From Albugo candida (Eukaryota): 64,000 bases of DNA. The stretch covers positions 310,001-374,000 of the forward strand of contig JBDOQK010000020.1 of the NCBI GenBank assembly GCA_040437565.1, given 5' to 3'. Below are positions 32,821 to 61,172 of this stretch, one piece after another; within the stretch, counting starts at the first letter, position 1, and the number at the start of each line of letters is the position of its first letter. The notes beneath the pieces were generated by a model that was given only the letters and a program-made list of their open reading frames with translations, did not search any database and was not told the DNA's origin. The translations under genes and the position numbers were made by a program.

Positions 32821-35800
32821 CTATTTGGTGAACTCACTGACTGGCTGATGTCCGCCATCCTCAACTAGCTTCTCACGTAATGTCAGCAGCTCCCTGCGCC
32901 ACATTTCTTCTGGCGTCGTCTCTTGTAGTGTATGTAGCTCCGTCAGTCTTTTTTTATGCTCTTCTTCGAGTTTGTTGGCTCTATCGAGCGTGAAGCTCCA
33001 CATCGACATGTTGAGAAGATAATCAAAACCTCCTGAAGAGTTATCATTCGCCGACATGTTACCATATCGAAATTGTTGCTCTGGAGTATATCCTTGGGAG
33101 TCCAGCAAGCATGCAACTTTTCCTTTGGTCATTTTCCTTGTGAGAATGCTCTGAAGATCACCTGTACTCACTTGTGAGATAAACCGGATTCGATTTTGTA
33201 ATTCTAAAACGTCGCATTCGTGTTTTTTCACCAAGTACTCCTTTCGACGTTTGTATAAATCCAATCGCACAGGAAAAAACATTTTGATGATATCATCGGA
33301 GCCCGAAAAGCGCTGCAGAGTAGAGTTAGTGTCGAACGCGTGCATGTTGTTGGTGTTCAATTTTGATTCCAGCTTGAAGAATTGAATTAATTCCACCGGG
33401 GTCATATCGCGGAAGAATGTCGAGTCGGCACGAGATAGCTGGATCCGGAAACATACATGTTCTTCAGAGTGATGTTCTGTAAATGAACGAATCAGCTTTT
33501 TCTGGAGTAAATCCCATAGCGTCTTCTTGTAGTCATCAGTCCACTTTCCAATAGGAAGCTCGGCTATCTCTAGTGTTGTGGCGTTTAAATGTCGAATTGT
33601 TCCCTGGGTTGTGTAGGACTGCAATCCGGCTGCATGAATGGTACCCCGAAAGCCTCGAAACCAGGGCAAGAGAGATTCTGACGGTGGACTTTGATCAAGA
33701 TGATGTTGCGAATTTAGTGAATCGATTCGACAAAGCACGCGATCGATAACTTCGATCGGATTATGATTTGGTATATATGTGGACCAGCCCGTCCCAATTC
33801 CTTCACATCCATTTATCAGTAACATTGGTATGATAGGGACGTAGTACTGGGGCTCAACAGAGATCCCGTCGTCGTCATTGTAGCGCAATAATGCATCGTC
33901 TTCTTCTGGATATATCAGCCGTGTGTATTTACTCAGCTTCGTAAAGATATATCGAGGGCTAGCAGCATCTTTTCCACCTTGAAGGCGGGTTCCGAATTGA
34001 CCTGAAGGATACAGCATATTGATGTTATTGGAACCAACATAGTCCTGCGCCATGTTAACAATAGTAGAGTGCAGCGATGCCTCACCATGATGATACGCTG
34101 TATGCTCACTACAATATCCGGCCAGCTGTGCTACTTTCATTTCCTGTGAAAGTTTTTTCTTGAGACATGCGAACAATACCTTCCGTTGAGATGTTTTCAA
34201 CCCGTCAATAGCGGACGGGATTGACCGCGTGTTATCGGCACGAGAGAATTGGATCAATTCTTGATTGACAAAGTCACTATAGGAAAACACACCTTGCTCT
34301 CTACAGAAAAAGGAATTGACATCGTACTTTTGTAGTAACCAATTCTTCCGGTCATGAGCACGTGCTTTACTGAACACCATTTCGAGTAATTGCCCATCCT
34401 CTTCACCTTCCCATTTCATTTGAATCAGATGCTTCTTCAGATTGGAAAAATACTCGCGGGCTTCTGCACTGGTACTTGTTCCCAGGCCTTTATAATATTT
34501 AATGTAATAGTTTTTTCTCTCGTCTGCAGCAAGATTTTTTCGCCATTCAAGGTAATCTGGTGAGCTGTAGAAGCTCAGAGGACTTTTTACCTGTGAATCT
34601 CTTTTTGGTATTGCTTTGATGATTGGAGTCACAAACACCTGGATAAATTCTTTTGATCGTAGTAAATTCGGCCAGAACGTGTGGAAGATATTGAACAATA
34701 ATCCTTTAATATGCGAGCCATCATGATCTTGATCTGTCATTACGATAACATGACCATATCGAAGTTGCTGACGTTTCTCTATAGTAGCATATGACTCCCC
34801 CATTTGAAGTCCTAGTATCGTGCATAGATTCATAAATTCGGAATTTTTGGATAATTGATTGATTGTTGCGTCCCGTACATTCAGAAGCTTACCCCTTAGT
34901 GGAAAGACGCCAAAACGATCCCTTCCCACGACTGCAAGCCNNNNNNNNNNNNNNNNNNNNNNNNNNNNNNNNNNNNNNNNNNNNNNNNNNNNNNNNNNNN
35001 NNNNNNNNNNNNNNNNNNNNNNNNNNNNNNNNNNNNNNNNAGGCGGGTTCCGAATTGACCTGAAGGATACAGCATATTGATGTTATTGGAACCAACATAG
35101 TCCTGCGCCATGTTAACAATAGTAGAGTGCAGCGATGCCTCACCATGATGATACGCTGTATGCTCACTACAATATCCGGCCAGCTGTGCTACTTTCATTT
35201 CCTGTGAAAGTTTTTTCTTGAGACATGCGAACAATACCTTCCGTTGAGATGTTTTCAACCCGTCAATAGCGGACGGGATTGACCGCGTGTTATCGGCACG
35301 AGAGAATTGGATCAATTCTTGATTGACAAAGTCACTATAGGAAAACACACCTTGCTCTCTACAGAAAAAGGAATTGACATCGTACTTTTGTAGTAACCAA
35401 TTCTTCCGGTCATGAGCACGTGCTTTACTGAACACCATTTCGAGTAATTGCCCATCCTCTTCACCTTCCCATTTCATTTGAATCAGATGCTTCTTCAGAT
35501 TGGAAAAATACTCGCGGGCTTCTGCACTGGTACTTGTTCCCAGGCCTTTATAATATTTAATGTAATAGTTTTTTCTCTCGTCTGCAGCAAGATTTTTTCG
35601 CCATTCAAGGTAATCTGGTGAGCTGTAGAAGCTCAGAGGACTTTTTACCTGTGAATCTCTTTTTGGTATTGCTTTGATGATTGGAGTCACAAACACCTGG
35701 ATAAATTCTTTTGATCGTAGTAAATTCGGCCAGAACGTGTGGAAGATATTGAACAATAATCCTTTAATATGCGAGCCATCATGATCTTGATCTGTCATTA

Positions 35801-37589
35801 CGATAACATGACCATATCGAAGTTGCTGACGTTTCTCTATAGTAGCATATGACTCCCCCATTTGAAGTCCTAGTATCGTGCATAGATTCATAAATTCGGA
35901 ATTTTTGGATAATTGATTGATTGTTGCGTCCCGTACATTCAGAAGCTTACCCCTTAGTGGAAAGACGCCAAAACGATCCCTTCCCACGACTGCAAGCCCA
36001 GCAACGGCTAATGCTTTTGCGGAATCACCCTCGGTGAGTATAAGCGAGCACTCATGCGACTGCGATCCACCAGCAAGATTAGCGTCTTCAAGCTTTGATA
36101 CATTCAGTATTGATTTCGATCGGGCTGTGGATACCTTTTTCATCAATGCTGAGCGCTGTTTTGATCGAATACCTTGCACAGTTTGCTCCACAATACCTGT
36201 ATCACGTATAACTGCTTTCAGGAAACGATCCGGAAGATTACAAAGGGTCCCAAAACTTGCAGGTCGGGATGTTAGATATTCTTTCATTTGAGAGTCGAAT
36301 GTGGGATTCTCAATCATGCAGTTGATGTAAAGTGCAAGATATGGCTTTACTTGAGCTGGGGTGGCATTCAATTCCGAATGTTTTTTTGCAATGTGATCCG
36401 CAACTCGCTTCGTAATTTGTTCGGCGACATGAAGGACATGCGTTCCACCACGAAGCGTTGATATTCCATTCACGAAACTGACTTGAGTAAAGCCTACTTC
36501 TGATGGTAAAACACCAATGTGCCAAAACCTGTTGATGCGTGATATGACCCAGCTGAAATCAGTTTTCGCCGAAGACAATTTCTGATCCCCCTTAAATGCC
36601 TGAATGTATGATTCGAATCCGGAGATAGGAATTATACTTCCATTCAAACTTACTGTAACATCGTCGACACAACCGGCTACGTCATAGACTCGCTTCTTCA
36701 ATAGCCGTAATGTATCTGTACTTAGGGACTCCAATTGGAATAATTTCAAGTCTGGAGAGAACGAGATGCGAGTATAATCTTTATCACCAGCTGGTAATGG
36801 TTCAATCTCTGGTCTCTCTCGTTCCCGCATATTATTTCGCCAAACTTGTCTGTACTTCATACCTGTGATTGTATCTCCGGTCTCCACAACGAATGTTTTG
36901 CTAAAAATATTGGTTAATTTTGCTCCGTAGCCATGCCTGCCGCCCGTGAATCGAGTACTACCATCGTCAAAGTTTGATCCGGTTAAAAGATTCCCGAAAA
37001 CAAGTTCGGGTACGTATATCCCTTCCGTTGGGTGTATTTGGACAGGAATACCGCGACCGTCATTATGGACCATGATGCAGGGTTCGTTTGCAATTGTCGT
37101 GTCAATAACCACATCTAATTTTTGCATGGTACGATCTCTTTTCTTATTATCCAGTGCGTTTACAACGATCTCATCAAATATTTTGTAAAGAGCAGGAACA
37201 TATTCTATGGAATCTAGTGTCATTTCTACTTTATTTTCGATTGCATTTTCATTTACGATCCATACATTTTCCGTTACTTTTTCCATTGAGCCAATATACA
37301 TTTCAGGTCGCAACAAAACATGTTCTAGCGGTGTTTTCCGCTGAAATGTGCATTCGAGCGAGCGGTGAATAGAAAGATCGGAAACGCTAAAAGGCTGACA
37401 TCTGACCAATTTTCTCTGCGGTATTTGTTTGAAAAAACTTACCGTTATCGACCGCTTGCTAGCGAAGCGCAGGTGCGCACGAAGGACACGGTCCAATGAG
37501 TAGTATCGAGCATACGTCCACATAAGAACTATGATTGATCGGATTGGAGGCAACATTCTCCAATCACGAACAGTTGATAGTGGTTTCAT
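32821..37589 (-). CDS. TOP2: Type IIA DNA topoisomerase, single gene of ~1236 aa once the 958-bp overlap across the gap is collapsed
   Basis: EHVLLRPEMYIGS, EIVVNA, GGRHGYGAK, LTEGDSA, PLRGKLLN, MTDQDHDGSHI, YYKGLGTS, YHHGE, and the active-site ASPRY. Confidence 0.95.
33983..35998. repeat. Direct duplication 33983-34940 / 35041-35998 flanking a 100-N gap (assembly overlap)
   Basis: No differences seen by eye, and both copies translate identically. Confidence 0.9.
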
Positions 37590-37816
37590 AGTATCATCAA
37601 ATACAGCTTAGTTGTGGGGCTTATTGGATGAGAAATTCACGACCTCTGAGTCAAAAGAAATACCGAAACTGATAATGGCAATCTGCTAAGGTACATTTTT
37701 GTCGAATAGGTACACTTGGCATAGCTCGATGTTGACAATTAGCCTTTTGTGGAGGGAAGACCTGAAATTGACCTGAAATTGCGGAAATTAAGTCTTGCTA
37801 CTTCTTCAAATTTCTC

Positions 37817-46443: not shown

Positions 46444-49400
46444 TGTGACTGTAGTCGGTCCTCCCTATTGATCTCCGCTATTATCAATCCAAAAGATCTC
46501 TGTGTTAGGTTTCTTTTTATCCCTACCGTACTTGATCTATTTCACTTCGTACGAGACACAAGGAATTCAGATCCCATCACTTCCCCTTCTTCCGTTGCGC
46601 GTCGTCATAGACTGTCACATCTCTTCAGCTCCGGGATTGTCTTTGACCCACCGTGACAGCAGGACCGGAACATCTTCATGCATTATAACAGCGGGCTCCC
46701 AGCTGTTTTCCGCGCTATCTAGTTCGATCCATTCGACCAAGATTTCCCATGTCTATGTATCGCGATTGATACGGCACTCCAAGAATCGTTTCACAGATGC
46801 CCGCCATTCGCGAACACGATATGATCCTTTAGGTCCTGCGTAACTTCCAAATAACCTTCTTTGTAAAGCCGTAGGCGCGAAGCATGACGCGCGTGAACAT
46901 CGTAGGGTTCCATTAGTTCCTGATACACCCAATCGTTTAATGTAGACACCACACGGTATGGTCCTTTCCACCGTAGGACCAATTTGTTTGCGTGCTTCAT
47001 GACTTGACCGGATAGGACAAAATCACCAATTTCAAAATTAATACATATGACGCCCTTTTTTTCGGCTATGACGGCGTCTTGCTGCCTCATTCTTTTGTTT
47101 TGCAGCCTCAGATAACGCCTGATGCATATGTGCCAATGTATCTTGAAGGGTTTGGATAGAGTCTTGCTGTTTGGTAGTCAACTCTAGCGCGGTCATAGAG
47201 TCCAAATTGTTCCATGCCGCCGGCCGATATAACACGCTGACCGGATCTCCTGCTGGAAGGGCCGTAAACCCCGTAACCGGTGCGTACCCATTCAATCGAG
47301 CCGATGGTAGTTGATTTACAGACGATTGACAGAGCGGCAACAAACTGGGCCACTCTGCAATCCTCAGCTTCCTCTCGCTCAAAAGACATCGCATTATCTT
47401 GAGTAACTGACGGTTTAGTACTTCGAACGACCCATTCGCCCACGGACAATACGCCGTCACGAAATGATGTTTCATGCGTAGGATTTTTGACAATTTCGAT
47501 ATAACTTCATTCTTGAAATCTGACCCTCTATCGGATACCCAGACCGAGACCGCGCCATACCGTTTAAACCAATCCAATATTGCTGCCACGGTGACATCCG
47601 TGTTGGCCACCACACTAGGAATAAACTCACAAAACCCGCTCATTCCATCCTTAAATACGAGCACATAACGATATCCTCCACTGCCTGCAGGCATGGATAG
47701 AGAATCGAAATGTAAGATTTCGTTCGTTTTGGTTGCTCTCAGAGTCTCTCCAAATGGGCGAGGACATCTCCCTCCTCGCGCTGAAAGACAGTGTAGACAT
47801 CGAAGCACGAATTCTTTCACGTCACGATTCATCGAGCTCCATGTGACATGCTTTGACAATATCTGGAATGTCGTCGCGACACCACGATGACCTGCAGAAC
47901 CCGCATGTACCACAATACACAAGCGTTGCTGAATTGTGACGGCACTATCAGGAATCCATATTCGATTTTCCGTATCTACCAAGACACCACGTTCCTTGTC
48001 TGTCGTTAATTTTGGGATTTCTAAACGGCTGCGTTCCTGCGAAGCGGATTGTACCAGCTTAATTTCGTCCAACGACGGCCACTCGAAAGCAGTATCTTCC
48101 AGCGGTGTTACTTTTTGTTCAACAGCCAGAGCATAGCATTTGGTGGTACTCTGTTTCGTTTTTTGATTTGGCGATCCCCAACGGGAAAGCATATCGCCCC
48201 AGACATTTTCATCCCCAGATACATACTCAATCACATAACGAGAAGTTTGCAAGACCATTGCCCATCGTTGAAGCTTGTCTGCTTTATATCTTGCAATGTT
48301 TGTATCCACGCTGTCTGGATCGAAAATGAATTTTAGATTTCGATGATTAGTGAATAGATGGAAACCCCGCTCTCTTAGAGAATATACTCAAATCGTTTAC
48401 ACGTCTCCACAATGACAAAAGCTTCCTTCTCCACTATTGCCCATCGTGCTGCAGCTCCCTTGAACTATCCACTTATAAATGCGAGTGGTACATGTACTTG
48501 CTCGCTGAGGGGATTATCCAACTCACCGGGCCTCACTTGAGTAACAATAGCTCCCCAGTAATCTTGAGAGGCGTCCGTATCGACACAGACCTCCTAGTCC
48601 TCTTTCGGGTGTGCTATCGGTGCCATCGCTCAGAGTGCGTCCTTGATCAATTGAAAACATTGGTCGTGCGATGGCCCCCATTCATGGTCATCTAATCGGA
48701 CTTGCACCAGCTTTCTCTTCTTTCTGCTCCCCGCCGCTTTCATGGTCTTCTCCAACAAATCATGGAGGGTTTGTACCAGCGCCGAGTAGTTTGCTATATT
48801 ATTCCGCATTTGATTTACCGCAGAGAGAAATTGCTGAAGGTCTGCAGCCGTGCCTGGTCGTCCCATTTCGCATTATCCTTGAATCCGCTCGGCACAATGG
48901 CTCACTCCCTTTCCAGAAATTGTCTTTCCGCACACAACGTTTCAAAAGAGAGAAAACAGCATTTTTTTGGATGTAGCTTCACTCCAAATTCTTCACATCG
49001 ACTAAGAACGATTTCCAAAACATCAAGAAGCCTTGTTTCTGATTCAGCATAACCGAAAACGTCGTGCAGCCATACTTGAACACCCTGATTTAAAACGGGT
49101 TTCAACACTCGCTCCGCAACCTGCTGTGCAAAAGCTACAGCATCTGTTGAGCCCATAATAACACGATTTCCCGTATAAAGTCCTTCCGGTGTGACAACAG
49201 TAAAATAATCACGACTGCTTTCATCTAGCGGTAGTTGCAAGTAGAGACGAAAACAATCCAGCGAAAAGTAAAAGCGTGATCCATCGAGACTCGCGATAAC
49301 CACTTCCAAATGTGGCATGGGCCACGCCATCGGTATTGTTAGAGCATTGGCTGCACGCAAGTCCACCGTCATTCGATAGCTTCCGATATCTTTCTTTGCT

Positions 49401-54338: not shown

Positions 54339-55685
54339 TCAAAACTTCTCGAAAGTGAATGCTCTCAGCAGTTCCAAAGAATTTTCCGGTTGATTTAATG
54401 GTACCATGTGGCCAGCATTGTAAACTTGTACGAACGATAGCGCACCTGCAGTACGAATTTTTCCAGCAGTAGCATTGTTTACTTTCCAGTCAACATCGTG
54501 TGCAGATGCAAATTGACTTTTCAATTTCCAATCCAATGCAAGTGTCCAAGCTTTGCATCCGATCCAATTCACGATGTAGTCCGCATCGCCAGCGTACACT
54601 AGAACTCGGATACCAGACTCCAGCAAGGGCACCAGGAGCTGCTGGAAATTTTTCATCCAGTCAAAAGCGAATCCGGCATACACAACAGGATTGCAAGCAG
54701 TCCATTTCGGACCATGAGGATCCACGTTCAACTTCCTTAAAACTTCATCCATTCTCAAAAATTTCTCCACATTCGAGAAATTATAACACATGGGTGGGTG
54801 CTCGCATTTTTCACGAATATCGTACACATTGAGCCCAGACTGTTGATAAGGAAGAAGGAGAGCCGCATTACAGAAGGACTCGGCAGCCAAACACGCTGAT
54901 TTCATATTTTGACATGCCTTGATCATGGCAACACAAACTTCAGCAGCCATTTTCATGGCAACATACGTCATATGAGATACTGCGGTAACACCGTATGTGT
55001 TATGGTATGCCATTTCTGGATATGAACGATATTGTACTTGAGGATCAGTAAGTCCGTTTCCAATACCCACTCCCTGTAAATTTATATGGATACCAGTTTT
55101 TCGTTGATTTTCGACAAAAATTCGGTTAGCGACCGCAGGGACATAATGTCCTCCATAACTCTCCCCAAAGACATAAAATGGTTGCGTTTTGTACTCTGGA
55201 TGTGCCTGGAAAAATTCCTGAATGAATCTGTACATGTCTTGCCCGATTTCTTTTTCATTCGTGTCATACTCATCAACATTACCATAGCTGAATCCGACTC
55301 CAGCAGGTTGATCGATCCAAACAACGTTGGCATTGGCATTCCAGCCATATGGATTTCTGTGCAAGGAGCCATTTTTGCTCAAAAGACAGGGACCGTTTTC
55401 TATCAGTAGTGCTAGCATAGAGCTACAGCCTGGTCCACCAGTAAGCCATATAACGAGCGGGTCCGTTTTTGGATCGGAACGAGACTCAAAGAACCAGTAA
55501 AAGTAGTGCTTGGATTTCGATCCATCGATTTTCAAGTAACCGCTTAATTGCTTTGGTGTGTCACAGAAGTCCGTTTCTACAAAGGTTTCGATTAGTGCAT
55601 AACTTTCATTTATCTCGGAACTCTCTGTCGCGGCGATACAGACAGAGAAAGAAAGAAGGACTAACGGGATGATTTGAGATCGCAT
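54339..55685 (-). CDS. Secreted serine carboxypeptidase (S10)
   Basis: Signal peptide; [37 protein letters not shown]. Confidence 0.95.
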
Positions 55686-55967
55686 AGCACAATATCTTTT
55701 CCCAGCGATTCTATTTTTTAGCTGCCCTTATTATAGCGCGGTGTACTGACAATGCTTGAGTACAGCGCTCAGGATGGAAGAATGTCTAAGACTATTTTAC
55801 GCCAAGCATAATCCTGGCAATTTGGAAAATGTGTACGTCTTCCTGCAACACAAAGCATCGGCTGAATGATTTGGTGTGATAGAGCTGAAATTACGCGGCG
55901 ATTCCGAGGTCGCGAGTTAGAATTGTGCGCAAAATTGAGAAATAAGTATGGCTGTACACCCACCTTG

Positions 55968-56549
55968 ATGCAACCTTACGAGTCCGTGCCGTACCCAAAT
56001 CCAAAAATCTTCTCGAGACAGTTAGTATACAGATGCTATTCTGAACATGTCAGCTAGACTTACTTAGGATTTCTTCGTAGTGTAGAGAGGCATCACGAGG
56101 CTGCAATAACATTTATACAAAATCGTCCGTCACATGCAGCACCGAGATTATTCAACGCCATCGCAGGTACCATATCAACCGATCACTGCCAATATAGTGT
56201 ATTGACAGACTTCATAGGTACATTCGCACAAGGACCACTAAGCTTTTTGTACAGCTGTCTCCAAAAGCGAAGGTATGTGAGGGTCATTTTGAGGCGTGTC
56301 GACAATATCCGGGGATTTTGTACCGCGTATCTAAAAGCGTTTGATAAGCATTGCAACTTGATTTTACTGGATGTGAAGGAGTGTGTTATACACAGAAACA
56401 TGAAAAAGAGAAACATTCAGTATCGCTATAGCATCTACAAACTGACAACGTACGAGCACGACAAAGCTGGCGGGATGAATATAGAATCACGATACCACGA
56501 GCAACTATTCGTACGTGGGGATAACATTGTGATGATTTACGCGGTTTGA
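55968..56549 (+). CDS. Sm-fold protein, Lsm11-like (alternatively divergent SmD2-like), 3 or more exons
   Basis: Sm1 GPLSFLYSCL...VRVILRRVDNIRGFCTAYLKAFDKHCNLILLDVKE and Sm2 RYHEQLFVRGDNIVMI. Intron 56167-56208, and an upstream exon encoding VPYPNPKIF. Confidence 0.75.
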
Positions 56550-56999
56550 CTATGAGCATATCGCGTTCAACATAGCCTAAGAAAGTAGTCTACACTGATT
56601 ACGAATACGGCGAGGATCTTCATAAATACTTGTTTATCTATGGTAAATGCTTCTTCATTTAGAATCAGCGTGGTGGTACTTTAATATCATCAGATCCAGA
56701 TATGAGATTATTCCATCAGTAAAAAATTAGAGTATGTATATGTCAACATCATTGATTCCATTGGGATCTCAATCTATTGTTACATCTTGTGGAATTTTTG
56801 TGAATGAGTGTTTAGAGGCTCTCAATTTCACTCCATTCGTTGTCAGCCAATCAAAATTGGAGGCACTAGGGAGATGACTGACATTATGTAGGCACCCCAC
56901 ATTGGTCAACCACGTTCTGTTACATAAAAAAAGTCTTCCCTGATGCAGAGAATCCTTTTAATTAACTAACAACTCTTTCAAAATTGAAGAGGTTCTAGT

Positions 57000-59900
57000 A
57001 TGGAAAATAATGCCTCTCTGATACCACCTCCCCCTCCTTCTCCTCCTCCGCTTCCTCCAAGCTCTCCTTGCTCCGCTACACAAACTACAAATGAGACAGA
57101 GAAGAAGAAGGCACTCCTTGTTTACCAAAGCTATCAACCGTCTGCTTCAGAGGACGATGACGATGATGAAAGAGAAGAAGATGAAGATATTGAAGACGAA
57201 CAAAATGAATCTGTAGAAGGAGACAACGAAGGAAAGTGGAAAATCGGCAATCAAGAATCCCACCTGATGAAAGCTTCTGAGTCTGTGGCCGCGGGCCAAG
57301 ACTCTAGAGAATCCAATATGGCAGAGGACGACGAAGATGATGAAGACGTTTCAGCTCATGCGCATTCTGATGAAGATTTGGATTCCCTACCACCAATCGA
57401 GAAAGCAGATCTGTTGTTGATGACCACTAAGCCTCGAAATGATCATAACTCACAAATCTACTCAACAAATCATTCGTTTTACAAGAAAGCCACCATGGAA
57501 GGCAATATATCTTCTATCCCAGATGATATAGGGACAGATAAATTACAATGCAGAGATGCGACAAGTCCTCTGATCGAAGGTAAAGGAGCTTCACGAAATC
57601 TCAAATCGAGCAATCGACGTACCACAAATGTTCGCCGTGAATGTGAGGTCTGTCATGAATGTCGGGGAGGCCGAAGGGCAATGATTTGTACTGTCTGTAA
57701 ATGCATGTATCATTCAAGTTGTTATCGCAAAAATATCTCCAAATCTGTTCATATCACACCAGATAAGCAATGGTATTGCCCGGAATGCGATCCAGGTGCA
57801 AGTGGGCAAGTGGAGAATGAAGATTTTCGAGCCATCGAGTATGGGCTTAATGCAACTCCTCGAACATCTCGTCGTAATGACCCAAGTGGGAGTGGCTCAC
57901 ATATCAAAAACACAATGAAGGAGGGCGCTGCAGGCAATCGAAGTGCATCTAATACTGCAAATTCCCATTGTGACACCGGAATAGTGACACAACTAGAAGA
58001 AAAACTTAAATGGGTCAGTGACGTTGCACTACATGGTGGTAAACAAGCAAACTGGATAATTCTTGAACAAACAAATGACATTCTTGCCATTCTTGTTCCA
58101 GTATTAGCAAGTTTGAAAGAAAAAATGAGCCAACAGGGGAACCTGACGGAAGTATCGAATCAAAGTCCTGTGTCTATCAATACGCTGAGTGAGCATCCAG
58201 ATCTTGGGAAATCATCGTCCGAAAGCACAGCGAAAAATCAAGACTTCNNNNNNNNNNNNNNNNNNNNNNNNNNNNNNNNNNNNNNNNNNNNNNNNNNNNN
58301 NNNNNNNNNNNNNNNNNNNNNNNNNNNNNNNNNNNNNNNNNNNNNNNGGCTTAATGCAACTCCTCGAACATCTCGTCGTAATGACCCAAGTGGGAGTGGC
58401 TCACATATCAAAAACACAATGAAGGAGGGCGCTGCAGGCAATCGAAGTGCATCTAATACTGCAAATTCCCATTGTGACACCGGAATAGTGACACAACTAG
58501 AAGAAAAACTTAAATGGGTCAGTGACGTTGCACTACATGGTGGTAAACAAGCAAACTGGATAATTCTTGAACAAACAAATGACATTCTTGCCATTCTTGT
58601 TCCAGTATTAGCAAGTTTGAAAGAAAAAATGAGCCAACAGGGGAACCTGACGGAAGTATCGAATCAAAGTCCTGTGTCTATCAATACGCTGAGTGAGCAT
58701 CCAGATCTTGGGAAATCATCGTCCGAAAGCACAGCGAAAAATCAAGACTTCCCGGCATTGATGAAGTGGGTGCACGAAGAGCTGACCGCTCTTAAACACG
58801 TCACTCAACAGCTGCAGATGGCCGGAATACAATACGAAATCGATATGATACGGGAAATTCGGATGGTATCCTCTTCTGCTGATGGTAAAAACGGACTTTA
58901 TCCGGGGCCAAATGGCTTCAAGAATTCAAATGGTCGGCTGGGATGTTCATCAGGAACGGGATCTGGTTTGTTTCGAGGGGCTAGCGGAACAGGTGGTGGG
59001 GCTGGAGGCGGTTCTAAAGTCAAAAATGGAGCTAGTCGTCTTTATTCCTCGAAACAGATTCAAAAGCTAGAAGAATGGTATCAAAAGTCCTCAAGGCCAG
59101 AAGCTAGTGAAATACAGGCAATGTATCGTATTATCAATAGTGCGGAATACGCTGACCGTGAATTACAACCGGATGGTATCTCGGTCAAGCAGATTCGAAT
59201 TTGGTTTGACAATCGGCGTGCCAAAGAAAGACTCGACTATATGCGACTGAAAATGAAGGACATTTCCACTGCCGATATGGACGCTGAAAGCGTCAAGAAG
59301 ATGAAAGCGGCATATATCGATGAAGCTAAAGAGGTATTGGAAGCGCGTGTATCGCGTTTACGTGAAAATGGCAAAAGCGCTACGCAGATTGTCGATGAAG
59401 CCGATCTGCTGCTCATAGCTAGTGGAGAACGGCCACTCGCTTCCAAACCTCCACGATCAAGTCAAAATACTTCTAAAGCTTCGTCTGGACAAAATTCCTC
59501 CGTGAGTGGCGCACATAAAAGTAGCTTGATCGATCAAAAACCACCACTAAGCTTGAAAAAGAGAATACGAATGGATTCTGTTGCATCGGTGCGAAAAGCG
59601 GTCAAGGAGGCAAAAGACACAGGAAAGACAGAGGACGAAATCAGATCCATCCGTACCACAGCTATTGAGGTTGCTAAGCAACGCCTGCACATCCCGTACA
59701 AGAATGCCCGCGTTGGACCTTCCAGACCATTGGGGAAAAACGAAGTCACTCACATCAAATTCAAAATGCTAAAGCTCTTGGAAGAAGGTGCACCAGCAGA
59801 AGAAGTGACGGATATAATCGAATTACTCTTATCTGTCGTCATTCCTCGTCAAGTTTTGCTCGATTCTGGGCTAACAAGGCAACTTGAATTGGCGCTAAAA

Positions 59901-61172
59901 GCGCATCGGGAGAACAAAGAGCTAGTCAAGCAAACAAAGAAGCTTTTAGACGAATTCCAAGCAATCATAGATCGAGGCGAAGAAGCTGACGCATTAGAGG
60001 TTGATGACGTCACTGGGCTGAGCAAATCTATTGCAGACTCTGACGTGCTACCCAGTCACCCGATCGCCTCGACTGGTGTTAGCACACAATCGCCTGCAGC
60101 ATCACCAGATCAAAGCAAACGCGCTCGTACTGGAAAGTTCTCAATTGCGCAGCTGAAAAAACTCGAAAAGTATTTCAAAAAGGACGATACGCCGAGTAAG
60201 AAGAAGCTGGAAAAACTTTCTGAGAAGCTTAGTGCGATGGCAACAGAAGAAGGCGGAAAGACTCTGGATTACAAACAATTACGTGGCTGGTTCTATAAAC
60301 GTCGGTCTTCCAATCAACCTCCGCATGCTCTGCTCGTAGCAGGCAGCAAACAACAAGAAGGAAGCGGAAATGCAATGGGTGATGACGTCATGTCCTCCTC
60401 ATCGTCAAGCAGTAGCGAGACAGAATCCGATAGCAATGAGAGCGTCGCGTCTTCAATTGACTCACGGCAAAGCTTAGCCGATAGCAGCAATGGTAGTACA
60501 TTGAAGCGCAAATCACTAGCAGATTTTCCCGTACCATCTTCCAAAAAGCGAAATCGGGTAGGAGCAGCTAGCAAAGATTCAAAGGCAGCGTTGCAATCCA
60601 AGACGTTCAATGTAAAGCAGCTATCAACTCTGATTGAATCGTACGAACGCAATCCGAGTCCTAATTCATCACGCATGGACGAACTTGTTCATATCCTCAA
60701 CCACGACGATCACTCTGGTGAGCAGAACGCGAATACTGTGACAAAGCAACAGATTCAGGCGTGGTTTGGACGTCGGCGTGCCAAAGAGAAGAAGGATATC
60801 TTGAAGCTACAGAGCAAAGAAGCACCAGTTCGAAAAATGTCCACCGGGAGTTCTAGTAGCTCAGAAACTGATGAAGAAGATTCGCAAAAGTATCTGAACC
60901 CGAGCGCGCGAAAAGAGCTGTTTTCGAATGAGAATAAAGGATCAAATGTCGCGATAGCGTCTGATGGTCATATCAAGAGTGAAGATGGTCAGTTTGCCGA
61001 CGAAATTCACCATAAAGAGAATGATGAGGATGCAAGCGATGATGAGCAGGATGATATCGATATTGAGGTTGAGATCGATGAAGACGATGATGACGATGAC
61101 GATGACGATGACGATGATGATGAGCAGGGCGACAAAGAAGATGTGGATTTAGCCGAAACTCCGAAGACGTAA
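57000..61172 (+). CDS. PHD finger + three homeodomain-like repeats + TFIIS-N-like domain protein (~1222 aa after collapsing the overlap)
   Basis: C4HC3 PHD (CEVC...CTVC...HSSC...WYCPEC), helix-3 motifs IRIWFDNRRAK, LRGWFYKRRS, IQAWFGRRRAK, and acidic termini. 57844-58247 is duplicated at 58348-58751 across the gap. Confidence 0.88.
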   Translation: MENNASLIPPPPPSPPPLPPSSPCSATQTTNETEKKKALLVYQSYQPSASEDDDDDEREEDEDIEDEQNESVEGDNEGKWKIGNQESHLMKASESVAAGQDSRESNMAEDDEDDEDVSAHAHSDEDLDSLPPIEKADLLLMTTKPRNDHNSQIYSTNHSFYKKATMEGNISSIPDDIGTDKLQCRDATSPLIEGKGASRNLKSSNRRTTNVRRECEVCHECRGGRRAMICTVCKCMYHSSCYRKNISKSVHITPDKQWYCPECDPGASGQVENEDFRAIEYGLNATPRTSRRNDPSGSGSHIKNTMKEGAAGNRSASNTANSHCDTGIVTQLEEKLKWVSDVALHGGKQANWIILEQTNDILAILVPVLASLKEKMSQQGNLTEVSNQSPVSINTLSEHPDLGKSSSESTAKNQDFXXXXXXXXXXXXXXXXXXXXXXXXXXXXXXXXXXLNATPRTSRRNDPSGSGSHIKNTMKEGAAGNRSASNTANSHCDTGIVTQLEEKLKWVSDVALHGGKQANWIILEQTNDILAILVPVLASLKEKMSQQGNLTEVSNQSPVSINTLSEHPDLGKSSSESTAKNQDFPALMKWVHEELTALKHVTQQLQMAGIQYEIDMIREIRMVSSSADGKNGLYPGPNGFKNSNGRLGCSSGTGSGLFRGASGTGGGAGGGSKVKNGASRLYSSKQIQKLEEWYQKSSRPEASEIQAMYRIINSAEYADRELQPDGISVKQIRIWFDNRRAKERLDYMRLKMKDISTADMDAESVKKMKAAYIDEAKEVLEARVSRLRENGKSATQIVDEADLLLIASGERPLASKPPRSSQNTSKASSGQNSSVSGAHKSSLIDQKPPLSLKKRIRMDSVASVRKAVKEAKDTGKTEDEIRSIRTTAIEVAKQRLHIPYKNARVGPSRPLGKNEVTHIKFKMLKLLEEGAPAEEVTDIIELLLSVVIPRQVLLDSGLTRQLELALKAHRENKELVKQTKKLLDEFQAIIDRGEEADALEVDDVTGLSKSIADSDVLPSHPIASTGVSTQSPAASPDQSKRARTGKFSIAQLKKLEKYFKKDDTPSKKKLEKLSEKLSAMATEEGGKTLDYKQLRGWFYKRRSSNQPPHALLVAGSKQQEGSGNAMGDDVMSSSSSSSSETESDSNESVASSIDSRQSLADSSNGSTLKRKSLADFPVPSSKKRNRVGAASKDSKAALQSKTFNVKQLSTLIESYERNPSPNSSRMDELVHILNHDDHSGEQNANTVTKQQIQAWFGRRRAKEKKDILKLQSKEAPVRKMSTGSSSSSETDEEDSQKYLNPSARKELFSNENKGSNVAIASDGHIKSEDGQFADEIHHKENDEDASDDEQDDIDIEVEIDEDDDDDDDDDDDDDEQGDKEDVDLAETPKT

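Follow-up and report, generated by a model that had tools for sequence, protein, structure and literature searches.

A probable Lsm11 ortholog with a shortened N-terminal extension in the oomycete Albugo candida

A four-exon gene of the oomycete Albugo candida very probably encodes, judging from protein similarity and domain layout, an ortholog of Lsm11 by descent. The gene lies on the + strand at positions 55774 to 56549 of a 64,000-nucleotide stretch of contig JBDOQK010000020.1 (GenBank assembly GCA_040437565.1, positions 310,001 to 374,000 of the forward strand), which we refer to as the window, and its product, P0001, has 204 amino acids. Lsm11 is derived from SmD2, and together with Lsm10 it replaces SmD1 and SmD2 in the ring of seven members found in U7 snRNP (small nuclear ribonucleoprotein). 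By analogy, the Albugo protein is probably part of a non-spliceosomal Sm ring, and we tentatively suggest, at odds a little short of even, that this ring may process histone pre-mRNA in Albugo. Taken as a whole, an Lsm11 ortholog in the SmD2 position of a ring with a U7-like role is our best explanation, and we give it a probability of roughly 0.7.

Sequence and profile comparisons placed P0001 with Lsm11. A Pfam scan returned a single LSM domain at residues 114 to 201 (E-value 2.6e-10, 40.3 bits, cut-off 23.4). When P0001 was compared with PDB sequences, the top matches were four human LSm11 constructs, with E-values from 9.2e-9 (38.8 bits) to 1.1e-7, followed by SmD2 chains from 1.4e-6 (31.7 bits) down and then by LSm3. 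A profile of 61 relatives, P0001 included, matched human LSm11 with an E-value of 7.4e-36 (127.5 bits) in an alignment that ran from LDVSSDSFDPLLALY to the C-terminus, and the top SmD2 with an E-value of 4.9e-17 (65.6 bits). The Sm domain of P0001 scored 123.4 bits on an Lsm11-like profile of 75 sequences built without P0001, 120.0 bits on a profile of 55 non-oomycete Lsm11-like sequences, and 49.7 bits on a profile of 29 SmD2 sequences. The SmD2 of Albugo candida (P0205, 110 amino acids, named 'Small nuclear ribonucleoprotein Sm D2') showed the reverse, with 203.8 bits on the SmD2 profile and 65 to 68 bits on the Lsm11-like profiles.

The closest relatives of P0001 were oomycete proteins annotated as hypothetical or simply as 'Sm domain-containing', from Lagenidium, Phytophthora, Saprolegnia, and Aphanomyces. 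An exhaustive HMMER search against 1.84 billion representatives yielded 849 matches at E<=1e-3, and we used the best 150 of these 849. Apart from P0001 itself, that set held 149 rows, 84 of which matched the Sm region and 65 of which matched residues 1 to 60 only. Among the matches listed, the Sm-region proteins were mostly 200 to 450 amino acids long with a C-terminal Sm domain, and 51 of the 84 carried an LDxxSxxFDPxxAL-type motif. Two of the relatives had unusual layouts: P0017 (744 amino acids) joins an oomycete-like Lsm11 to a long N-terminal region, and P0036 (533 amino acids, Peronosclerospora) carries a C-terminal protein kinase. Both fusions are probably merged gene models. A profile search of a set of 5.8 billion proteins returned 68 proteins, from Phytophthora, Pythium, Globisporangium, Peronospora, Aphanomyces, several ferns, a lycophyte, and Chlorokybus among others, most of them with precomputed matches to both PF28412, which is LSM11_N according to the ESM Atlas, and PF01423. 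The Atlas cluster nearest to P0001 (score 0.94, 224 of 256 features) consisted mostly of Oomycota and was labeled 'LSM/U7 snRNA-associated Sm-like protein LSM11 N-terminal domain-containing'.

Orthology to Lsm11 was indicated by the architecture of the protein, because two separate blocks of P0001 are collinear with a protein of Phytophthora cinnamomi, P0013, which is among those with a precomputed PF28412 match. By BLASTP, the N-terminal module was 65% identical over 48 amino acids (E-value 3e-18), and the region from a short helix ahead of the Sm fold (the pre-Sm helix) through the Sm domain was 37% identical over 131 amino acids (E-value 5e-21). The pre-Sm helix of Albugo, APRLFNAI, lined up with PSLFEQLA of Phytophthora by BLASTP and with APRNVLTRM of human LSm11 in the profile alignment. 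A 12-sequence alignment of oomycete orthologs, described below, was in accord with the BLASTP blocks.

Several features separated P0001 from SmD2. An extended Sm1 pattern was present in 52 of the 84 Lsm11-like matches (among the matches listed) and in none of 29 SmD2s. The spacer between Sm1 and Sm2 is 49 residues in P0001, against a median of 34 in SmD2 (range 28 to 34, n=28) and of 56 in Lsm11-like proteins (range 28 to 152, n=61). An earlier reading of this DNA, made from the letters alone and called here the original prediction, had described this spacer as long; it is longer than that of SmD2, though modest in length. The same prediction had held the gene to be Lsm11 rather than SmD2, and that assignment is borne out by the sequence, profile, and architecture comparisons and by P0205, the separate canonical SmD2 of the species that the prediction had proposed to look for. 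We also considered SmD2 itself as the identity of P0001 and rejected it: P0001 has 204 amino acids, with a 99-residue extension and the Sm1 insertion, whereas SmD2 has about 100 to 120 and neither feature.

The trees put P0001 on the Lsm11-like side. We built a quick tree of 76 Lsm11-like and 29 SmD2 rows over 114 columns, and a careful tree of 32 and 11 of these rows. Before tree building, 24 of 100 Lsm11-like sequences in which the patterns found no Sm1 or no Sm2 were removed, and the sole named animal row was one spider protein. The branch between SmD2 and the Lsm11-like proteins had a length of 2.62 in the quick tree with a Shimodaira-Hasegawa-like approximate likelihood ratio test (SH-aLRT) value of 100; in the careful tree the split was supported at 100/100 and was present in 200 of 200 bootstrap trees. 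P0001 fell on the Lsm11-like side in both trees and outside the SmD2 group in every one of the 200 bootstrap trees. The metagenome proteins P0002 and P0003, each of 98 amino acids, formed a long branch of their own (0.89) inside SmD2.

Some observations weigh against our reading, a first group because of what they say about descent and a second, taken up below, because of what they say about function. In the first group, the branch leading to P0001 is long (1.14 to 1.32) and the trees left its position within the Lsm11-like group open. When P0001 was forced beside the SmD2 stem, the quick tree became 14.3 log-likelihood units better than the free tree (p 0.73 in the approximately unbiased, or AU, test) and the careful tree 5.46 units worse (p 0.19). 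Since neither AU test rejected this placement, the Sm domain by itself leaves a basal position of P0001 possible; such a position may be due to long-branch attraction. The original prediction had called for profiles and phylogeny against SmD2, and the outcome was thus split: the profiles and the free trees favored the Lsm11 side, and the AU tests left the SmD2-stem position unrejected. In addition, P0001 has a 17-residue stretch, LKAFDKHCNLILLDVKE, that is identical in the SmD2-like proteins P0002 and P0003. On the SmD2 profile, P0001 scored higher (49.7 bits) than the spider protein (34.0 bits) or a Phytophthora protein (32.5 bits). A fold search of the predicted structure against the PDB did not tell SmD2 and LSm11 chains apart, with E-values of 2e-7 to 6e-7 for both.

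These results raise the possibility that P0001 is a divergent SmD2 paralog with no link by descent to animal Lsm11, acting as an alternative spliceosomal Sm subunit. The unrejected placement beside the SmD2 stem, the HCN residues and the identical 17-residue stretch common to P0001 and SmD2-like proteins, and the equal ranking of the two kinds of chain in the fold search are all consistent with such a paralog. However, the profile margin in favor of Lsm11-like over SmD2 exceeds 70 bits, the four-residue Sm1 insertion is lacking in 29 of 29 SmD2s, P0001 is collinear in its N-terminal module and pre-Sm helix with proteins that carry LSM11_N, it stays outside the SmD2 group throughout the bootstrap trees, and a canonical SmD2 is present in the same species. 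We therefore consider an SmD2 paralog very improbable and conclude that descent from Lsm11 accounts better for the protein as a whole.

The exon structure of the gene was established by comparing the DNA with protein records and with assembled sequencing reads (Table 1). The spliced translation is identical, letter for letter, to P0001, the NCBI hypothetical protein ABG067_003523 [Albugo candida], and differs at one of 204 residues from another A. candida record, CCI44409.1 (P0334). We aligned Logan contigs of four runs (X1, X2, X3, and X5) to positions 55600 to 56800. Contigs of X1 and X2 span all three intron joints (50, 60, and 51 nucleotides) and those of X3 span the second and third; the contig of X5, which is from a second study, spans only 56284 to 56789 and contains no joint. 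Runs X1, X2, and X3 come from a single study, and RNA is a guess at their type; no run with the gene is on record as RNA. Because the contigs skip the introns, a spliced form exists, and mRNA is its simplest explanation.

This structure changed parts of the original prediction. The motifs it had quoted were all present in the frame it gave, with PYPN and APRLFNAI in frame, Sm1 reading ...VRVILRRVDNIRGFCTAYLKAFDK and Sm2 reading RYHEQLFVRGDNI, and the Sm domain stands far above chance by its Pfam E-value. The start it had given, 55968, is the internal Met49; the true start is the ATG at 55774, with a further exon and a 50-nucleotide intron upstream. Of the two introns it had weighed, it had preferred 56025-56057, which would continue in 'exact register' into ...QLTYLGFLR, and no contig of the four runs contains that joint; the other, 56021-56080, is the one found in the contigs and in the NCBI model. 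The upstream exons it had called unannotated are real, but they are already contained in ABG067_003523.

We also asked how probable it is that the gene model is an annotation artefact or that the gene is a pseudogene. The protein is short and sits on a long branch, and the contigs come from runs whose records do not name RNA, as would be compatible with an artefact. Nevertheless, the contigs skip exactly three GT..AG introns, the open reading frame (ORF) appears in two independent annotations (one identical to P0001 and P0334 with 1 of 204 residues different), and the Sm fold is confidently modeled. Together these make a non-functional gene model extremely improbable, and the gene looks intact and expressed.

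Table 1. Exons, introns, and the Sm1 insertion of the Albugo candida Lsm11-like gene (positions are those of the window).
Feature	Positions	Strand	Description and basis
Exon 1	55774..55832	+	Start ATG at 55774; residues 1-19 plus 2 nt of codon 20; opening part of the N-terminal three-helix module; a stop at 55750 precedes the frame, X1 and X2 contigs connect 55832 to 55883, and the translation matches P0001
Intron 1	55833..55882	+	50 nt, GT..AG; skipped in contigs of 2 of 4 runs (X1, X2)
Exon 2	55883..56020	+	Remainder of the three-helix module (residue 48 at 55967); internal Met49 at 55968; PYPN at 55989-56000
Intron 2	56021..56080	+	60 nt, GT..AG; skipped in contigs of 3 of 4 runs (X1, X2, X3)
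Exon 3	56081..56166	+	Disordered linker and short helix APRLFNAI (56139-56162) directly ahead of the Sm fold
Intron 3	56167..56217	+	51 nt, GT..AG, in frame (no stop interrupts the reading if unspliced); skipped, with cut +2, in contigs of 3 of 4 runs (X1, X2, X3)
Exon 4	56218..56549	+	Sm domain (about 56232-56546); stop TGA at 56547-56549; Pfam LSM at residues 114-201
Sm1 four-residue Lsm11-type insertion	56310..56321	+	RGFC, residues 126-129; gapless against human LSm11

The predicted structure of P0001 consists of an N-terminal module, a linker, a short helix, and an Sm fold. In the AlphaFold2 (AF2) model, helices at residues 2-12, 14-26, and 31-42 make up the module (residues 1 to 48), with predicted local distance difference test (pLDDT) values of 95 to 97. 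A disordered linker (about residues 49 to 87, pLDDT about 47 to 50) contains a degenerate second LSM11_N motif, YP...I..RH, and leads to the pre-Sm helix at residues 88 to 95. The Sm fold (residues 100 to 204) is complete, with a helix at 103 to 111 and five strands (pLDDT 94 to 98), and it has both the four-residue insertion and a lengthened loop between Sm1 and Sm2.

The extension ahead of the Sm domain is shortened in Albugo. P0001 and P0334 were placed in one alignment with 10 further orthologs from oomycetes. Albugo lacks about 65 alignment columns that hold PLDFRSxxFDxxxAL and another stretch of the linker, all of which are kept in each of the 10 other orthologs. By alignment, the lost motif, LDxxSxxFDxxxAL, corresponds to residues 24 to 38 of human LSm11, and the columns lost make up roughly half of what aligns with the FLASH-binding segment of the human protein. 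Contigs over 55600-56800 contained no extra exon for the lost motif. The original prediction had remarked that the FDPL part of the N-terminus was not visible, and a motif check, the alignment, and a six-frame hidden Markov model (HMM) search all agreed that it is absent. Farther along the linker, VPYPNPKIFS-RHV of Albugo aligns with AYPLDNIQKCRHL, with P58 and R65 invariant; PYPN is therefore a degenerate remnant of the second LSM11_N motif. The likeness of PYPN to the PYPN of human LSm11 (residues 46 to 49), on which the original prediction had leaned, is a true match of letters but is partly coincidence, as the aligned site reads (Y/H/Q)PLDN in the 10 other oomycete orthologs.

Studies of the human protein give the shortened region a possible role. 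Human Lsm11 binds FLASH through residues ~20-50 (PMC10578488), its N-terminal end interacts with FLASH while the helix at residues 107 to 118 contacts CPSF73 (PMC12774660), and its N-terminal domain (residues 23 to 130) forms a 2:1 complex with FLASH (PMC5636114).

We propose that the Albugo Lsm11, paired with an Lsm10-like protein, would fill the SmD2 position of a specialized Sm ring assembled around a U7-like small RNA. The hint of a U7-type snRNP in this lineage, which the original prediction had drawn, is in our view a reasonable inference. The N-terminal extension would help to recruit a CPSF73-type cleavage module to the target RNA, most likely histone pre-mRNA. With the first LSM11_N motif gone, recruitment is the weakest link of this scheme in Albugo; the gene may act without FLASH, may use the N-terminal module instead, or may have drifted to another role. 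An Rfam scan of the window gave no matches at gathering scores and none at E<=1, and no histone genes were found in the 64-kb window.

The second group of adverse points concerns this functional part. A search with an HMM of the missing region over six frames of positions 55000 to 57500 found nothing (best score -0.4 bits), and P0001 has no precomputed PF28412 match even though an N-terminal extension of about 99 residues is present. Loss of the stretch that aligns with the core of the human FLASH-binding segment weakens the functional reading. It is possible, then, that the gene is Lsm11 by descent and no longer works in histone 3' processing, either as a relic near loss in a reduced obligate biotroph or as part of an Sm ring with another task. 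Such a loss of role would fit the disappearance from Albugo of LDxxSxxFDxxxAL and about 100 extension residues kept in all 10 other aligned oomycete orthologs, the human FLASH-binding segment (residues ~20-50) that spans the lost motif, the missing LSM11_N match, and the long branch of P0001. Against it, two A. candida records, with one of 204 residues different between them, both keep the reading frame whole, all three introns are joined in contigs, and the N-terminal module has stayed 65% identical to that of Phytophthora. The Sm domain scored as well on the non-oomycete Lsm11-like profile (120.0 bits) as that of the Phytophthora ortholog (119.9 bits). As for the missing LSM11_N match, this domain is patchy in the family (carried by 28 to 77% of members per Atlas cluster) and is missed in many members of animal clusters as well (46% of the arthropod cluster and 37% of the nematode cluster carry it). 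On balance we regard loss of the histone-processing role as unlikely, and a U7-like role for the Albugo Lsm11 continues to be the explanation that we favor.

The N-terminal three-helix module is a feature of stramenopile Lsm11 proteins. It comprises about 45 residues (encoded within window positions 55774 to 55967) with the pattern FYxKHNPxN..N[IV]xEIxRxFxGRExxLCxKLxxKYG. An HMM of the module matched 58 of 107 Lsm11-like proteins scanned, many of which are fragments; more than half of the non-animal relatives examined have the module. The HMM gave no match in the fern, lycophyte, Chlorokybus, or spider (P0331) proteins scanned. Besides the Albugo gene, P0004-P0011 and others contain the module, and large unnamed metagenome proteins have 3 to 24 copies of it in tandem. 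Oomycete and diatom proteins (TBC1D23-like, PPIase, DENR, presenilin, and TTL) carry structural look-alikes at their N-termini, and so do some giant-virus proteins. No Pfam family for the module was present in the Pfam copy scanned, and P0085, which matches only the module part of P0001, has no precomputed Pfam domain. PDB sequences searched with the N-terminal 52 residues gave just a repeat match below significance, to a designed PPR protein (E-value 0.042, 0 stretches passing), and an Atlas feature search with residues 1 to 52 among named clusters gave no usable match. Since the module has been kept while part of the FLASH segment was lost, it may be a lineage-specific docking platform of a FLASH-independent U7-like particle, one that would recruit the cleavage factor in a way not known from animals; we think this reading quite doubtful.

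U7-dependent processing of histone mRNA 3' ends was long regarded as an animal speciality. According to a bioRxiv preprint dated 16 October 2026 (10.64898/2026.10.14.759114), homologs of LSM10 and LSM11 are widespread beyond animals; stramenopiles, illustrated by Ectocarpus, are among the groups that have them, and the histone stem-loops of stramenopiles are placed farther downstream and show weaker conservation. The words 'oomycete', 'Phytophthora', and 'Albugo' are absent from the main text of that preprint. Our literature search found no publication that pairs Lsm11 with 'oomycete' or 'Phytophthora', and pairing 'stem-loop binding protein' with oomycete, or 'U7 snRNA' with stramenopile, led to nothing relevant except the 2026 preprint. 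The idea at the level of the lineage is already known, from the preprint and from Pfam LSM11_N, which marks oomycete orthologs. As the general point is already made there, the novelty of our analysis is small: the Albugo gene model, the shortened extension, and the added three-helix module. A true Lsm11 in oomycetes would bring a lineage of major pathogens of plants and animals into the set of organisms possibly equipped with this machinery. Albugo, in which the first LSM11_N motif is lost and whose relatives keep it, is in effect a natural deletion variant from which the dispensable parts of the Lsm11 extension could be learned.

The window has a G+C content of about 43%. The neighbors of the gene are unremarkable: an S10 serine carboxypeptidase in divergent orientation, a PHD/homeobox-like ORF, a topoisomerase II, and a USP9X-like hydrolase. 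The PHD/homeobox-like ORF (56988-61172, + strand, 1394 amino acids) is long, acidic, and serine-rich, and its translation shows what we read as a cysteine cluster of PHD-like type along with three WFxxRRxKE motifs resembling those of homeodomains. Eight runs of 100 N are present in the window. One of them, at 58248-58347, lies inside this ORF, and a stretch of about 150 residues (LNATPRTSRRNDPSG...NQDF) is duplicated on each side of it, a pattern suggestive of misassembly at a scaffold gap. The topoisomerase II gene (32824-37607, - strand), with a gap at 34941-35040, is similarly split over two overlapping ORFs, both of which have TOPRIM_C and the start of DNA_topoisoIV. Because the two ORFs hold the same domains, sequence is duplicated on either side of that N run. 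A retroelement integrase remnant with Integrase_H2C2 and rve domains is present at 47041-48387 (- strand).

We compared the Albugo protein with SmD2, with human LSm11, and with the oomycete LSM11_N/LSM proteins. With SmD2 (P0205 and human 1B34 chain B) it has in common an Sm fold of the D2 type that includes an N-terminal helix, as well as GPLS ahead of Sm1 and AFD[KR]HCN. P0205 and P0001 are 27% identical over 105 amino acids with a four-residue gap in Sm1, and SmD2 is without the long N-terminal extension and the module.

The comparison with human LSm11 (PDB 6V4X/9N96 chain D and 8G1U chain D) showed agreement in the Sm domain and differences in the extension. Sm1 aligns without gaps, including the RG-C-T-G/A-x-L insertion. 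Both proteins share the Sm2 motif R-x-x-x-Q-[LI]-F-[VI]-RG-[DE]-N, a pre-Sm AP-R-x-[LV] helix, an N-terminal extension, and a lengthened loop between Sm1 and Sm2. The human protein is longer (360 amino acids versus 204 in Albugo) and its Sm1-Sm2 loop is far longer. Albugo lacks the first motif (human residues 24 to 38) and has no recognizable counterpart of the CPSF73-contacting helix (107 to 118), whereas it has the added three-helix module, which was not detected in the spider protein P0331 or in the streptophyte relatives scanned.

The third comparison was with the oomycete proteins represented by P0013 (KAG6614608.1, Phytophthora cinnamomi) and P0016 (XP_012200698.1, Saprolegnia parasitica). 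These differ from Albugo in the second motif, which reads YPLDNIxKCRH rather than YPNPKIFS-RH, and they have the same order of parts as the Albugo protein: the three-helix module, the extension, the pre-Sm helix, and the Sm domain.

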